The position numbers were made by a program, and so were the translations under genes. Positions 3,884 to 20,716 of a DNA stretch of 32,000 bases are shown in pieces. Source of the DNA: an uncultured archaeon (GTDB lineage: Archaea; Iainarchaeota; Iainarchaeia; Iainarchaeales; CSSED10-239). Under the pieces are notes generated by a model. The model was not told where the DNA came from. It saw nothing but the letters and a program-made list of their open reading frames with translations, and searched no databases. The DNA lies in contig CAZCAP010000002.1 in NCBI GenBank assembly GCA_964496765.1, positions 60,001-92,000 on the forward strand, given 5' to 3'. Positions within the stretch are counted from its first letter, which is position 1; the number at the start of each line of letters is the position of its first letter.

Positions 3884-3903
3884 TTGTTATATTTGTTGGA
3901 CAC
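3884..3903 (+). repeat. motif copy 1: TTGTTATATTTGTTGGACAC
   Basis: Exact 20-mer, 47 nt downstream of tRNA-iMet. It points rightward into the cassette. Confidence 0.9.
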
Positions 3904-4057
3904 AAATTCTAATTATCAAACTAATTATTTAAAGGCCTTAAAAAACGCTAAACCATATAAAAAAGGGGAAAAAGCTCCTAATTTAGCAAAAAAGGAAAAT
4001 AAGTGGTTAAAATCAAATATAAACCTATATAAAACCACAAAAGTAACTATATTTCAT

Positions 4058-4426
4058 GGTAATTACTAGTAATTTTAAAGTAATTACCTAAAATTAGATT
4101 TAAAATAACTAAATAAACACACCACATATACATAAATTTAATAACTACTATAATTAAAATTATAAAAAGTAGCAGATATCATAAAAATAATGATTTTTGT
4201 TATGTATCAACCACTGTAATTACTATAATTACCATATAAGCGCTTAAGTAATTACCAGCGTTACAGAAAGCTTTATAATAATTACGGTAATTACTATAAT
4301 AGATAACTATGAATTTAAAAGATATATTCAAAGGATTTACTAATATATTCAAATCCAGAAATAAACCAGATAACACAAATATCAACAATAAAAAAGATGG
4401 TAATTACCATAATGAACGTAATTACG
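4058..4426. repeat. cluster of palindromic GTAATTAC sites (iteron/operator-like)
   Basis: Perfect GTAATTAC occurs at 4059, 4080, 4216, 4248, 4287, 4400 and 4418. TAATTAC occurs at 4226 and 4279. The copy at 4399-4408 is the full 10-bp palindrome GGTAATTACC. A 10-bp palindrome TAAGCGCTTA at 4237-4246 sits between two of the sites. Confidence 0.85.
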
Positions 4427-4929
4427 ATGAAATATTAAATTATTCAAAAGATATGATAGTTGATAAACTAAGTAAGGAAGAAATAAATTTTGAAAAGCTA
4501 AAGACAATATCAGAACATACATCAGTATACAATGAAAAAAAAATTAATGGAATGATTAAAAATGAAGAAATAACAGAAAGTATAATAAAAAACACATTAT
4601 TAGAAAATAATAAAACAAATACAAATATTAGATCAATAACTGTTGAAAAATTACAAAATGAAATAAATACTGTTTGGGACATATTAAAAATTAAAGAAAA
4701 CACGCAAGCAGAACATATAATTAAATCAACACCAGCTGATAAATGGGTTACAATGGATGAAATTAGAAACAATATCAAAATACAGTTTAATGTAGAGTAT
4801 ATTAATGAGAAAAGCTTATACCCTTACCTAAAAACACTAGTGGATATCAACCTAATAAAGGTGAATAATATAGGTAAAAAGAGAACTTGGAAAAAAAATA
4901 TAATAGTTATTGAAAATAAAAGAAAGTAA
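4309..4929 (+). CDS. hypothetical protein with C-terminal winged-helix-like DNA-binding domain
   Basis: 206-aa ORF. The C-terminal KWVTMDEIRNNIKIQFNVEYINEKSLYPYLKTLVDINLIKVNNIGKKRTWKK has a wHTH-like pattern. The N-terminal part is an N/K-rich low-complexity region. Two GTAATTAC sites lie within its first 40 codons. Confidence 0.6.
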   Translation: MNLKDIFKGFTNIFKSRNKPDNTNINNKKDGNYHNERNYDEILNYSKDMIVDKLSKEEINFEKLKTISEHTSVYNEKKINGMIKNEEITESIIKNTLLENNKTNTNIRSITVEKLQNEINTVWDILKIKENTQAEHIIKSTPADKWVTMDEIRNNIKIQFNVEYINEKSLYPYLKTLVDINLIKVNNIGKKRTWKKNIIVIENKRK

Positions 4930-4930
4930 T

Positions 4931-18143: not shown

Positions 18144-18614
18144 TTAGAAGGTTGTTTGTAAAATCTTACTTGGTAAGTTTTTGCTTGCCTTGTATTCTTT
18201 AATGTAGGTAAGTGTATTTACATTTGTGATTCCATCTATTGAATAAACATTATCCAATATTTTTTTAAGATTGTTTTTGTCGGTTGCAATTACCTCTGCA
18301 ACAAAATTGTATTGCCCAGTAACCCCCTTGAGTGCAATTACGTCTTCCATGTCCTTTAGTTTTTTAATAATCTCGTTTTGCTTTGGAGGATCAATCATTA
18401 TCAGCATTTCTATGTGTTCAGAAAATCCAATAATTGTGTAATCCACTTCTGCAAATATGGATTTAATAATTCCCTTTTGCTTTAGTCTTTCAAGGCGCTT
18501 CTTAATTGCAACATCTGTTAAATTTATTTCCTTAGCAATATTTGCAAAAGAAATTCTCCCATCTACTATTAATTTTTCAATAATGTGTTTATCTATTTTA
18601 TCTATCACTTGCAT
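18144..18614 (-). CDS. Lrp/AsnC family transcriptional regulator
   Basis: An N-terminal HTH (DKHIIEKLIVDGRISFANIAKEINLTDVAIKKRLERLKQKGII) is followed by a RAM/ACT-like domain. Length is 156 aa. A GAGGGTG SD lies upstream. Confidence 0.85.
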   Translation of the reverse strand: MQVIDKIDKHIIEKLIVDGRISFANIAKEINLTDVAIKKRLERLKQKGIIKSIFAEVDYTIIGFSEHIEMLIMIDPPKQNEIIKKLKDMEDVIALKGVTGQYNFVAEVIATDKNNLKKILDNVYSIDGITNVNTLTYIKEYKASKNLPSKILQTTF

Positions 18615-18634
18615 AATAACACCCTCTAGTTTAA

Positions 18635-19351
18635 TTATAATTGACTTCTTGGTTTTAATAATCTGTATTTGTTTAGATATACTTCTGTTTTAAGTATTTC
18701 AATATATGGAATTATAAATATCACAAATACAAATATTGAAATAATTGGACCCACAATACTTCCAAATGCAATATCAATAATATATGTTATGAACATTAAA
18801 AGAAATGCAGCAACAAACAAACTAATCATAAAGAACCAATTTCTTTTCCAATATTTTGTACTAATTATTATAGATGCGCCTATAGATTCCTTTTCCATAA
18901 TAATAACCTGTGGAACAAACCAAAGCATTAGTGTTATTATTAATAAAACTAATGATATGATAATATTATTCAATAGAAATAAATTGTATAGCACTACAGA
19001 TATTCCGTACATTAATAAAAAGAAAACCCAATTGAATTTAGTTAACTTAATGAAATGTGATTTAATATCCCTTGCCTGAACCCTATCACTAATCTTATAG
19101 TCTGATCCAATTCTATAAATTAAAACAGTTTGTATAAGACTGTACACAAAAATTATTACAAGACAGGATATTATTGTTAATATGATGTCTCCTGGAACCT
19201 GATCAAGAATATTATATGAAATATTAAGATTACCACCAAACACACTAAATATTGGATTTATTAAAAATAATAAAAACAAAAATAGTACGCTTAATGAAAG
19301 AATTATTTTATAATTTTCAAAATATTTTCTAAAAGTAATTCCAATATCCAT
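18635..19351 (-). CDS. polytopic membrane protein, unknown function
   Basis: 238-aa ORF with about 6 hydrophobic segments. It sits 20 nt upstream of the Lrp gene on the same strand. Confidence 0.65.
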   Translation of the reverse strand: MDIGITFRKYFENYKIILSLSVLFLFLLFLINPIFSVFGGNLNISYNILDQVPGDIILTIISCLVIIFVYSLIQTVLIYRIGSDYKISDRVQARDIKSHFIKLTKFNWVFFLLMYGISVVLYNLFLLNNIIISLVLLIITLMLWFVPQVIIMEKESIGASIIISTKYWKRNWFFMISLFVAAFLLMFITYIIDIAFGSIVGPIISIFVFVIFIIPYIEILKTEVYLNKYRLLKPRSQL

Positions 19352-19495
19352 ACCTGACCATCTTCTTTCTATGTTTTATTCAATATATAATATAATTTGT
19401 TTTCTATATAATTAGTCTATCAAATAATTTATATACTTAACATTTTTAGGGGATATTCTTTAGTTTTCATCCCAAGGGTGTTTTTTATTGCTTTT

Positions 19496-20716
19496 TTACC
19501 CAAGAAGATAGTATTCTTTAGACCCATTTATCTTGATTTTTGCTATGTTTCCTAGCTTAATTTTTCCATTTTTATTTGATTTTATAACAACAGGCAGATA
19601 TTCCTCTGTTTTTCCAAGAAATTCGTTTTTGTTTGTGGCTTGTTCGTTGACTAGAACCTGTTTGGTTTGTCCAACAAATATAACAGAATTGTTCCTTGCA
19701 ATCTCTTTTGCAACCTTCGCAAGAATTCTAGATCTCTCCTTCTTAATTTGTCCGTGGAGATCCTTTAGGTTATTTGCTTCTATTCCTTTTCTTTTTCCAA
19801 ATCTTGAAATATTAATTAATGGGGGTTTAATTTTTTTAATAAATTTTATTGTGTTTTCAAACTCTTTTTCTGTTTCTTCTGGAAAACCAACAATCACATC
19901 TGTTGCAATTGTTATTGTTGGGTGAACTTTTCTAAAATAATTAATAATGGTTTCAATTTCCTGCGTTTTATAATATCTATTCATTTTTTTTAGTGTGTTA
20001 TTATCTCCTGCTTGAATAGGGATGTGTAGGAACTTATAAATTTTTTTGTTTTTATATACTTTAGCAAGTTCTTTATAAAATTTAATTAGATGTTGTGGGT
20101 TTGCCATTCCTAATCTTATTCTAAATTCACCAGGTATTTTAATTATTTCTTTAAGTAGATTTACTATGTTTGTCTTAATATCTAATCCATAGCAACCAGT
20201 GTCCTGGGCAGTAAGTAATATTTCTTTTGATCCGTTTTTTAGTGCAAATTTAGTTTCCTCTAGTATTTCCTTAATTAGTTTACTTTTCAGTCTTCCTCTT
20301 GCAAATTTGACTGCGCAATAAGTGCATGCTCCAAGACAGCCGTTTGCAATAATTATTGCCTGAGTTATTTTTTTCTGAGATTTAATTTTACTTTTAGAAA
20401 AAATTAATTTTTTTAATTTTTTTACATCTTTTAACCCAAAATAGTTTGCTTTTGGGCACGTTCTTCTAAGTCCAGATGAATCAATATCAACAAGACACCC
20501 AAACAATATAATTTTTTTATCTTTCGTTCCATTTTTTTTAAGTTCCTGCAGATATTTAATTATTTTAAACTCTGTTTGTTCTTTAACCCCGCAGGTGTTT
20601 ATAAGAATAAAATCCGCAGAATTTATATTTTCTGTTAATATTGTATGATTGGTTAATTCTTCACTAGTTCTTTGATTTAGAGTGCATCCAAATGTTTTAA
20701 CAAATATAGTTTTCAT
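19496..20716 (-). CDS. radical-SAM methylthiotransferase, MiaB/MtaB (CDKAL1-like) family
   Basis: N-terminal UPF0004 domain (VKTFGCTLNQ), radical-SAM cluster CLGACTYCAVKFARG, and a C-terminal TRAM-like domain. A GGTGGAG SD lies upstream. Confidence 0.85.
   Translation of the reverse strand: MKTIFVKTFGCTLNQRTSEELTNHTILTENINSADFILINTCGVKEQTEFKIIKYLQELKKNGTKDKKIILFGCLVDIDSSGLRRTCPKANYFGLKDVKKLKKLIFSKSKIKSQKKITQAIIIANGCLGACTYCAVKFARGRLKSKLIKEILEETKFALKNGSKEILLTAQDTGCYGLDIKTNIVNLLKEIIKIPGEFRIRLGMANPQHLIKFYKELAKVYKNKKIYKFLHIPIQAGDNNTLKKMNRYYKTQEIETIINYFRKVHPTITIATDVIVGFPEETEKEFENTIKFIKKIKPPLINISRFGKRKGIEANNLKDLHGQIKKERSRILAKVAKEIARNNSVIFVGQTKQVLVNEQATNKNEFLGKTEEYLPVVIKSNKNGKIKLGNIAKIKINGSKEYYLLG
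19668..19685 (-). repeat. motif copy 5: TGTCCAACAAATATAACA (plus-strand reading), inside the MtaB-like CDS
   Basis: Exact 18-mer encoding ..NSVIFVGQT.. on the minus strand. It has the same orientation as the gene and lies ~330 nt upstream of the next minus-strand start (19351). Confidence 0.85.

Follow-up and report, generated by a model that had tools for sequence, protein, structure and literature searches.

Archaeal promoters are pictured as a short, degenerate B recognition element (BRE) followed by a TATA box, with gene-specific control exerted by bacterial-type regulators. The conserved flank of the archaeal TATA box is the BRE, and it is placed upstream. The TATA box lies ∼26–27 nt upstream of the start site, and the tRNA and CRISPR promoters of Nanoarchaeum equitans, with a BRE and a TATA box ("box A"), are examples of this arrangement (PMC3491384). 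Here we analyse a 20-bp motif that occurs five times in a 32,000-nt stretch of DNA (the window) from an uncultured archaeon of the Iainarchaeota (assembly GCA_964496765.1, contig CAZCAP010000002.1, positions 60,001 to 92,000 of the forward strand). At the junctions of transcription units, the motif forms a cis element that is specific to the lineage and dependent on orientation; the most likely of the readings considered is a second, alternative class of core promoter, in which a TATA box is joined to an invariant TTGGACA that would be read by a basal or dedicated factor. We give this reading a probability of about 40%.

Like the archaeal core promoter, the motif has an A/T box of 8 bp and the same orientation as the gene downstream of it; its distances to tRNA-Thr, CDC48, and other starts are compatible with the 26–27 nt rule, and in at least one divergent region it stands back to back. 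It differs in that its invariant 18–20 bp are far longer and stricter than the described BRE/TATA consensus, and in that its conserved flank lies downstream of the TATA box, with no clear BRE. Moreover, it is found alongside the ordinary BRE/TATA promoters (AAAAC[C]-N-W8) that neighbouring genes use, is under-represented between divergent genes, and stands close against the stop codon before it.

In eukaryotes, too, a conserved block adjoins the TATA box on its 3′ side, namely the downstream BRE (BREd), the consensus of which is RTDKKKK (PMC4581360). The [G]TTGG of the motif fits positions 1–5 of this consensus, but the motif fails at positions 6–7 and in its variant with C at position 11, and its block is invariant whereas BREd is degenerate. 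To our knowledge, BREd has not been described in archaea. Haloarchaeal GvpE-dependent promoters have a 20-nt upstream activating sequence (UAS), composed of two 8-nt parts and located upstream of the BRE, and two divergent GvpE promoters lie 35 nt apart (PMC2241852). The motif resembles this UAS in being a conserved element of ∼20 nt beside a basal promoter and in forming inverted pairs in short divergent regions; however, the UAS is fixed upstream of the BRE within one gene cluster, whereas the motif lies 2–60 nt from ordinary promoters and at dozens of unrelated junctions. Bacterial alternative-sigma promoters (e.g., the −24/−12 promoters of sigma-54) are all-or-none, strictly oriented, few per genome, often paired in tandem with a housekeeping promoter, and variable (often long) in their distance to the start codon. 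The motif is likewise all-or-none, has few copies per 100 kb sampled, accompanies genes of mixed functions, and would often stand in tandem with ordinary promoters. This analogy is functional, as archaea use TBP and TFB paralogues rather than sigma factors.

The motif and its conservation

We identified exactly five matches to GTGTCCAACAAATATAACAA in the window at up to three mismatches, compared with none in 100 dinucleotide-preserving shuffles of the window, and a chance or low-complexity origin was therefore rejected. Copy 1 (3884–3903, + strand; TTGTTATATTTGTTGGACAC, 0 mismatches) lies 45 nt past the 3′ end of tRNA-Met, beyond the T7 terminator of that gene (3842–3848), and 405 nt before the ATG (4309) of a gene for a 206-aa protein; this layout (tRNA-Met, 46–90 nt, motif, 397–408 nt, 206-aa gene) was found in 7 genomes. 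Copy 2 (7551–7570, − strand; TTGTTATATTTGTTGGACAA, 1 mismatch) covers the final 9 codons (LLYLLDNKK, then stop) of an HD-domain open reading frame (ORF), and the ATG (7526) of a XerA-like tyrosine recombinase follows 24 nt past it. In one related locus (L180) the copy-2 position and its +25 spacing are the same, with a conserved AAAAGAGTTGAAATTTATG. Copy 3 (12215–12234, + strand; TTGTTATATTTCTTGGACAC, 1 mismatch) is located 6 nt after the dUTPase stop codon and 115 nt before the ATG (12350) of a KaiC-like gene, which has its own conserved BRE/TATA-like block downstream of the copy. Copy 4 (15730–15749, − strand; TTGTTATATTTGTTGGACAC, 0 mismatches) lies 130 nt after the TopA stop codon and 36 nt before the CDC48 ATG (15693). 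The final copy, copy 5 (19667–19686, − strand; CTGTTATATTTGTTGGACAA, 2 mismatches), is in the coding sequence (CDS) of a MiaB-like enzyme, on the sense strand, where it encodes S-V-I-F-V-G-Q; it is 171 nt ahead of the MiaB-like stop codon and 315 nt ahead of the next ATG (19351).

All five copies share TGTTATATTT[G/C]TTGGACA. An earlier note on this DNA had reported five oriented copies at these places, and they proved real. Its exact stretches for copies 2 and 5 (7552–7570 and 19668–19685), its strands (those of a reading that begins TTGTTATAT, + at 3884 and 12215 and − at the others), and its distances to the recombinase and CDC48 ATGs were likewise correct. The flanks of the five copies are unrelated and identity ends at the motif edges, as had also been noted, which excludes a fragment of a longer repeat. 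Only the count of one copy inside a CDS needs amendment, because copies 2 and 5 both overlap ORFs. TTGGACA occurs 10 times in the window (4.9 expected), and 5 of the 10 belong to full copies; half-motifs are not enriched, and the element is therefore an all-or-none unit. Other matches on either strand of the window were weak (4–5 mismatches), with no evident antisense or guide partner among them. One look-alike with 4 mismatches (179–198) is MutS coding sequence (LAIILGQ) that is conserved in L104, and represents a coding coincidence.

The sequence logo was made from 74 non-redundant instances, after removal of near-duplicates, and was read outside the searched letters. The core consensus is TG[T/C]TATATTT[G/C/a]TTGGACA[C/G]T. 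Its A/T box, TTATATTT, is an 8-bp sub-element shared by every window copy (3887–3894, + strand, in copy 1) and a putative TBP site; it is present in 68 of the 74 instances, and CTATATTT is present in 6. The box is bracketed by an invariant G on one side and, at core position 11, by G or C (rarely A, never T) on the other, even where the search had left this base free. The invariant TTGGACA follows directly. The last base of the 20-mer is C or G, sometimes A, and the base after it is T in 54 of 74 instances. Outside the core, the logo has an A-rich, G/C-poor tract at −11 to −4, including a weak A-rich tract at the BRE position (−7 to −4). All-A/T 8-mers peak at −11/−10 (26 of 73 instances; background, ∼8), with a second peak 10–14 nt past the core (15–17 of 73).

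The motif is not palindromic, and its symmetric part is limited to TGT...ACA at the ends. Most instances (88%) are singletons; an inverted partner lies upstream in 9 of 73 and downstream in 1 of 73. Back-to-back inverted pairs with a spacer of ∼31 nt were found in five pair-containing loci, and one such pair (L093 and its orthologues) lies between divergent genes. Two further observations concern the internal structure of the motif. Positions 11 and 19 covary: where position 11 is C, position 19 is C in 24 instances and G in 3, and where position 11 is G, position 19 is G in 17 and C in 19, as counted by eye from the instance list and not computed. This is not base-pairing, and may reflect two sub-families or shared ancestry. 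Upstream of the RNase P RNA gene (L170 3143–3170; also L162, L173, and L184), the motif's 3′ half forms a conserved palindrome whose loop varies, TGGACAG-N7-CTGTCCA, and on the strength of this sequence the TTGGACA half may be a protein half-site that is usable twice.

A scan of one genome per species with the query TGTTATATTTNTTGGACA returned mostly single chance matches. Those in Bathyarchaeota, Bacillus, and Pseudomonas were set aside as chance, each being one orthologous coding or intergenic site, and a viral origin was rejected, as the single match in the viral collection was antisense in a CDS and was taken as chance. The metagenome-assembled genome "archaeon isolate ELA007" (25–32% G+C) had 13 exact matches on 11 contigs; its locus L078 shares synteny with the window, and the motif is present there at both the dUTPase/KaiC and the topA/CDC48 junctions. 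A metagenome scan yielded 93 stretches, mostly from contigs with 21–32% G+C, and in all there were ∼74 non-redundant motif contexts in related archaeal contigs of this composition. Eight dispersed motif loci were found on one contig of 976,691 bp. The 106-kb contig of the window has a sixth copy, inside RtcB, in the retrieved flanks, and this locus was not chosen by the motif; the sampled density is 6 copies in ∼49.5 kb of the contig. As the related loci were retrieved via the motif, their per-genome copy numbers and the conservation of their intragenic copies are biased upward, while the window, its flanks (L203 and L205), and second copies within a locus are free of this bias. Genes in the related loci are simple ORF calls. 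A literature search returned no description of this sequence, of such an element, or of relevant DPANN promoter motifs.

Conservation across species, like the existence of the motif, its coupling to gene orientation, and its positional statistics, was observed directly. Across related contigs, alignable DNA is 73–87% identical to the window, and the motif is intact at every orthologous junction covered. Gene order is colinear over copies 1–5 in L180, L193, L078, L168, and L152, with no inversion, and is identical in three assemblies of one population. The motif trailing the dUTPase gene is kept in 6 genomes, even where the downstream genes have been replaced (L152 and L158); in these two, the DNA ceases to be homologous to the window at 12234/12237, where copy 3 has its 3′ edge. 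At an Ogg-like locus, the motif stays at the head of the unit though the first gene differs (L044 vs. L129).

The orientation of the motif matches both flanking genes in ∼90% of instances. A co-oriented gene is located upstream in 46 of 52 intergenic instances, usually ending 2–40 nt before the motif, and a co-oriented gene is located downstream in ∼90%, at 3–490 nt; three or four loci face a convergent gene. Motif-bearing spacers are co-directional in 45 cases (85%), divergent in 4, and convergent in 4, as compared with 201, 62, and 17 background spacers, respectively (gap of at least 45 nt). The earlier note held that each copy points toward a downstream unit. The motif does precede a co-oriented gene, but it follows one equally consistently, and the claim thus described half of the pattern; it did not mention that the motif is strongly tied to where the preceding gene ends, that divergent regions are poor in it, or that an ordinary BRE/TATA often separates it from the gene.

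The neighbouring genes at the ∼45 distinct loci share no functional theme, contrary to the dedicated regulon that had been offered as one explanation. They include CDC48, Xer, the KaiC-like ATPase, FKBP, a thioredoxin/DsbA-like protein, Ogg, a metallo-beta-lactamase (MBL) hydrolase, PurF, S6e, L7Ae, AspRS, tRNA-Thr, RNase P RNA, VapBC-like pairs, ribbon-helix-helix (RHH) proteins, and PD-(D/E)XK nucleases. A heat-shock (Phr-like) regulon would fit CDC48, FKBP, and the DsbA-like protein; it was rejected because it does not suit the majority of the other targets and because the GrpE-DnaK-DnaJ operon of the window's contig lacks a motif copy upstream. Origin-proximal sites of the parS-like or ORB-like kind were also rejected, as the copies are dispersed over the 0.98-Mb contig and follow gene orientation, not replication direction.

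A candidate second core-promoter class

From the sequence of the instances, we infer binding by TBP and TFB, the position of the start site, and the participation of a dedicated factor. TBP would sit on the 8-bp box TTATATTT, with its register set by the flanking G/C pairs, and recognition of the adjoining TTGGACA[C/G]T, located where eukaryotes have BREd, would fall to TFB, one of its paralogues, or a dedicated co-factor. Transcription would start ∼15 nt past the motif, toward the side proposed in the earlier note. The element would occupy the far upstream edge of the spacer, directly behind the preceding co-directional gene, and would often serve as P1, the distal member of a tandem whose proximal member (P2) is an ordinary BRE/TATA promoter. 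This would account for some of the positional bias, a distal tandem promoter being necessarily pushed against the upstream gene.

The rule for the spacing of the TATA box was calibrated in this lineage on RNase P RNA and on the tRNA-Met of the window, and the RNase P RNA promoter box, TTTAAATA, is centred ∼26–30 nt before the mapped RNA 5′ end. (The RNase P RNA gene itself, at L170 3211–3480 and also in L162 and L173, is a full-length Rfam match with E = 1.9e-15, and standard annotation of the lineage would miss it because it scores below the gathering threshold, at 57.5 vs. 84 bits.) Applied to the box of the motif, the rule predicts a start ∼15 nt past GGACA, and the A/T-rich zone 10–14 nt past the core would be the site of the start or of the melted region. 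The genes at several loci are spaced in keeping with this prediction. tRNA-Thr begins 15, 17, and 28 nt past the core in three genomes, with no other TATA box available. The CDC48 ATG is at +19 in L078, L168, and L193 and at +37 in the window; for the recombinase (two genomes) and for an RHH gene the start is at +25, and for the DsbA-like gene, which has clear Shine-Dalgarno sequences, it is at +31 to +36. The motif is the sole candidate promoter at CDC48 in the three relatives, at the recombinase in the two genomes, and at tRNA-Thr. The earlier description of an oriented, transcription-linked cis element with a TATA-like box is supported. The back-to-back pairs have the layout expected of divergent promoters. 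A forward promoter thus explains the orientation, the sense-only copies within genes, the pairs, and the loci that have no other promoter.

Several findings weigh against this reading. The homology-supported N-termini of the MBL hydrolase (L013) and of Ogg (L129) are only 4 nt and 8 nt past the core, respectively, which is too close because their ATGs precede the predicted start. In at least 16 instances, an ordinary BRE/TATA of the lineage (AAAAC[C], 0–3 nt, then an A/T box) is present 2–60 nt downstream of the motif; these ordinary promoters serve RNase P RNA, S6e, FKBP, PurF, the KaiC-like gene, and nucleases, and a motif promoter beside them would be overlapping or redundant. Approximately 10 instances have a T5 tract within the first ∼15 nt of the predicted transcript. 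The motif is depleted from divergent intergenic regions, where promoters are densest, and it is usually nearer to the upstream stop (2–40 nt) than to the downstream start (3–490 nt). It also stays with the dUTPase gene after downstream replacement, once by a convergent gene. Finally, the textbook position of the BRE would make a motif promoter point the opposite way. Elsewhere, the ordinary promoter lies on the other side of the motif, directly upstream of it in L146 and 55–66 nt upstream at CDC48.

The position of the motif after stop codons is that of an archaeal intrinsic terminator; the T5 run of such a terminator is lacking, the longest T run inside the motif being 3, and a T at position 11 would give T6. 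T5 tracts occur at similar frequency on either side of the motif: a terminator of T5 or more separates the upstream gene from the motif in ∼25% of instances (e.g., the T7 after tRNA-Met), and a T5 tract follows within 40 nt at 11 of 22 motif-bearing 3′ ends. A substitute for oligo-T terminators was rejected, as T5 tracts are equally frequent with and without the motif. The A/T skew of the spacer after the motif did not discriminate for transcription through it. Three further candidates were discarded. A Shine-Dalgarno sequence or translation enhancer acting via 16S rRNA would have only 6–8 nt of pairing, within helix 45. A small ORF beginning at the NTG of the motif was rejected by reading of the flanks, where frames close after 12–14 codons and CTG is frequent. 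A structured noncoding RNA or a member of a known RNA family between copy 1 and the next gene, a gap of 400 nt, was rejected, as this stretch is occupied by a palindrome array (described below) and an ordinary promoter; an Rfam search of the window returned only four tRNAs at the gathering score and nothing credible at 3700–4400 with E up to 10.

Copies inside ORFs are in the sense orientation (17, vs. 4 that are dubious) and fall in two reading frames. The frame (V/A)IF(V/L)G(H/Q) is used in MiaB, RtcB, and an alpha/beta hydrolase, in which it forms the GHSxG nucleophile elbow, and this peptide could result from the common codons of an A/T-rich genome. The frame LLY(F/L)LD(T/N) is used in five unrelated proteins, often in tails or linkers, and is hard to explain at the protein level. 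The same MiaB site carries the motif in L131 and L168, and the RtcB copy is present both in the genome of the window and in the ELA007 group. Between these two, all six motif codons of RtcB are identical, compared with the same codon at 64–72% of conserved residues elsewhere (P ∼0.08 per comparison); this comparison of codons is suggestive, but no proof, of a functional copy. Whether copy 5 is a codon-bias coincidence or an embedded functional copy is uncertain. Because perfect sense copies lie inside both RtcB and MiaB, the motif does not block transcription.

Other explanations for the motif

The motif may instead be the site of a sequence-specific DNA-binding protein, such as a global regulator or insulator factor, and not itself a TATA box; we regard this as possible, if doubtful. 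Such a site would act as an operator where it falls between TATA and start, and as a shield against read-through, in the manner of the yeast factors named below, where it falls behind a stop codon and ahead of a promoter. This would accommodate the variable position of the motif relative to the ordinary BRE/TATA (2–60 nt upstream of it, or downstream of it at L146 and CDC48), the preference for co-directional junctions with a close upstream stop, the retention of the motif behind the dUTPase gene and a 311-aa gene in convergent contexts, and the all-or-none conservation. It is also consistent with the A/T peak at −11/−10, which would put the start at the 3′ end of the motif and explain ATGs at +3 to +8, and with the palindrome upstream of RNase P RNA, which resembles a half-site used twice. 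However, a polar roadblock at the perfect sense copies in RtcB and MiaB would cut off essential genes, and the G/C bracketing of the 8-bp A/T box is better explained by TBP. A non-palindromic, strictly oriented site of 20 bp is unusual for archaeal regulators: in comparison with palindromic operators of the Lrp, TrmB, Phr, and SurR type, the motif has no dyad symmetry and no coherent regulon. The reader protein, moreover, has no candidate.

A related possibility, which we consider rather unlikely, is that TBP together with a TFB paralogue or co-factor would bind tightly to TTATATTT-S-TTGGACA directly behind a gene and form a boundary module. This complex would stop or displace polymerases reading through from the upstream gene, and would also start or shield the next co-directional unit. 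It would be a compact terminator, insulator, and promoter in one, evolved for genomes with almost no intergenic space. Yeast general regulatory factors (Reb1, Rap1, and Abf1) and TFIIIB are known to block RNA polymerase II (PMC5052057). The proposed module would be functionally similar to the Reb1 and TFIIIB roadblocks and to the Sal-box/T0 sites of Pol I. As in yeast, the sites are asymmetric and highly conserved and mark where transcription units meet, with one gene before them and the promoter of the next after them; TFIIIB, which is TBP/TFIIB-like, is likewise both an initiation complex and a roadblock. Unlike such sites, the motif has sense copies inside RtcB and MiaB, which argue against an obligatory block. 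We know of no archaeal counterpart of the yeast roadblock sites.

It is improbable, in our view, that the motif works at the RNA level, in 3′ untranslated regions or intercistronic spacers, as a signal for processing or stability by which co-directional cistrons are kept apart. Transcripts cleaved at the 3′ end of the motif would yield near-leaderless downstream mRNAs, and ATGs without a Shine-Dalgarno sequence do occur 3–8 nt past the motif in L013, L129, L149, and L183. The predominance of co-directional genes around motif spacers (85%), the beginning of most motifs 2–40 nt past a stop codon, and the T5 tract within 40 nt at half (11 of 22) of the motif-bearing 3′ ends would all suit such a signal. 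The sense-only copies within coding sequences could be masked by ribosomes, and the exclusion of T from position 11 would prevent a T6 terminator. However, the interchange of G and C at that position is typical of duplex DNA being read through the minor groove or shape, and not of recognition in RNA. Folding of the sense strand of 72 instances gave a mean z of −0.45 and no consistent structure (z < −2 in 9 of 72), and the window offers no evident antisense or guide partner. In addition, a terminator of T5 or more precedes the motif in about one quarter of instances, and the copies in divergent regions and in back-to-back pairs have no upstream transcript in which to act.

That the BRE, in textbooks, is placed upstream of a TATA box raises the question of a promoter that points the opposite way and produces antisense RNA against the 3′ end of the preceding gene. 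Transcription from it would begin ∼20 nt past the TGTT end, right at the stop codon that closes the preceding gene, where the short distance of 2–40 nt to the upstream stop would place it. The AA at −3/−2 matches the core of the BRE consensus, the motif stays with the upstream gene when downstream genes change, and one gene on the opposite strand, for an alpha/beta hydrolase (L125/L134/L175), begins 53–59 nt from the TGTT end, a normal promoter distance. However, a suitably oriented gene is present on that side at only ∼6 of 52 intergenic copies, and nearly all copies would therefore have to be dedicated antisense promoters. It would be left unexplained why the starts of tRNA-Thr, CDC48, Xer, RHH, and DsbA on the other side fit so well, and back-to-back pairs would fire into each other from overlapping start sites. 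The polarity of the TATA box, with its T-rich 5′ half, slightly favours the forward reading. We thus hold an antisense promoter to be quite unlikely, a little more so than an RNA signal.

Selfish repeats are a still poorer fit. Repetitive extragenic palindromic (REP) elements, their hairpin-forming doublets (REPINs), or the ends of miniature inverted-repeat transposable elements (MITEs), mobilised by a transposase and tolerated between genes, would be near-identical, intergenic, and all-or-none, as most copies here are, and the ∼12% in inverted pairs with a ∼31-nt spacer could form hairpins. However, most copies are singletons whose orientation is tied to transcription, orthologous positions are kept across species with no turnover, the sampled density is low (6 copies in ∼49.5 kb; 8 loci in 0.98 Mb), and no gene for a REP-associated tyrosine transposase or any other transposase came to light in the window or in the flanking DNA that was read. 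A REP-like origin is thus very unlikely.

The remaining explanation, that the motif is a recombination site of the adjacent tyrosine recombinase in a shufflon, invertase, or integron-like system, had been the other suggestion of the earlier note, and it is barely credible: the consensus lacks inverted arms around a 6–8 bp spacer, no attC-like hairpin (60–140 nt, R''-L''/L'-R') was found in folding, the copies are dispersed and form no cassette array, genes keep their order across the copies, at which no rearrangement is seen, orientation tracks transcription, the same copies are conserved at housekeeping junctions across species, and the recombinase resembles the housekeeping XerA of archaeal dif sites. 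What it has in its favour is the XerA-like gene 24 nt from copy 2, the shift in gene content immediately past copy 3 in L152 and L158, and the alpha/beta-hydrolase gene that lies between two direct copies in L134 and L175, with a single copy in L126, which is ambiguous. A cassette insertion at the methyltransferase/RHH/DsbA locus was rejected, as the indels there have homology extending ∼60 nt beyond the motif and are accounted for by ordinary deletion, duplication, and a gene fusion.

Neighbouring features and significance

The window is archaeal with 29% G+C, and it encodes Trm56, TFE-alpha, the XerA-like tyrosine recombinase, the HD protein, CobA, a class II ribonucleotide reductase, dUTPase, the KaiC-like ATPase, CDC48, topoisomerase IA, Lrp/AsnC, the MiaB-like enzyme, and RFC. 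Between copy 1 and the 206-aa gene lies a second repeated sequence, the palindrome GTAATTAC, which occurs 9 times in the window (0.8 expected); 7 of these sites (4059, 4080, 4216, 4248, 4287, 4400, and 4418) form an array at 4046–4430, upstream of and into the 206-aa gene (4309–4929). The product of this gene had no Pfam match, and had been called winged-helix-like in the earlier note. The last GTAATTAC sites overlap an ordinary TATA box, CTTTATAATAATTACGGTAATTAC, ∼30 nt before the ATG. The array is conserved in 7 genomes, as are a ATATACATAAA block and a GTTATGT block, and the A-rich spacer of ∼190 nt before the array is conserved in length but not in sequence. By its layout, the array looks like an autoregulatory operator array; it may also be an origin-like or iteron-like region.

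A second repeated promoter-like element, which is G/C-rich, has the form CTTGGCCA(C/G)G..CCCCC..AAAAGGATATAC (or ..CCCCCAAAACAATTATAAAC). It was found in L093 (∼5100–5560), L150, L160, L119, and L164, upstream of PD-(D/E)XK and YhcG/DUF1016 nuclease genes and each time downstream of a motif copy. At the methyltransferase locus, some relatives encode a 446-aa THUMP-like methyltransferase and others a 400-aa form with a separate RHH gene (L124/L179 vs. L135/L185 vs. L063/L133/L198). The last ∼46 residues of the 446-aa protein are homologous to the C-terminal half of the neighbouring RHH protein, and it appears to be a methyltransferase-RHH gene fusion.

The remaining observations concern gene content. 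CobA (a corrinoid adenosyltransferase), directly downstream of it the class II (B12-type) ribonucleotide reductase with an ATP-cone, and then dUTPase are encoded at 8630–12208, and look like one deoxynucleotide operon that ends at copy 3. Genes for MutS and MutL are at the left edge (window 1–1700, L205 5305–9572), and a bacterial-type GrpE-DnaK-DnaJ operon followed by RtcB and phosphoribosyl pyrophosphate synthetase lies to the right of the window on the same contig (L203 12583–16142). A locus resembling those of type IV pili or archaella (22280–30547) encodes a T2SSE ATPase, two T2SSF proteins, a prepilin peptidase (A24), and a number of small proteins that bear class III signal peptides; it is free of motif copies over 10 kb.

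In practical terms, the motif can serve as a marker by which contigs of this lineage are recognised in metagenomes, and it could help to delimit transcription units. It also offers a precise handle, being one sequence at known positions with distinct predictions for the 5′ and 3′ ends of RNAs. If the promoter reading is true, an invariant element of 18–20 bp that fuses a TATA box to a second recognition block would be a different arrangement from the short and degenerate one in which archaeal promoters are pictured. Its use at dozens of unrelated junctions, kept across species of an uncultivated lineage with small genomes, points either to a paralogue of a basal factor that selects a promoter class or to a boundary that a protein marks between tandem genes. 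Such a boundary, if true, would bear on how transcriptional interference is avoided in very compact genomes.

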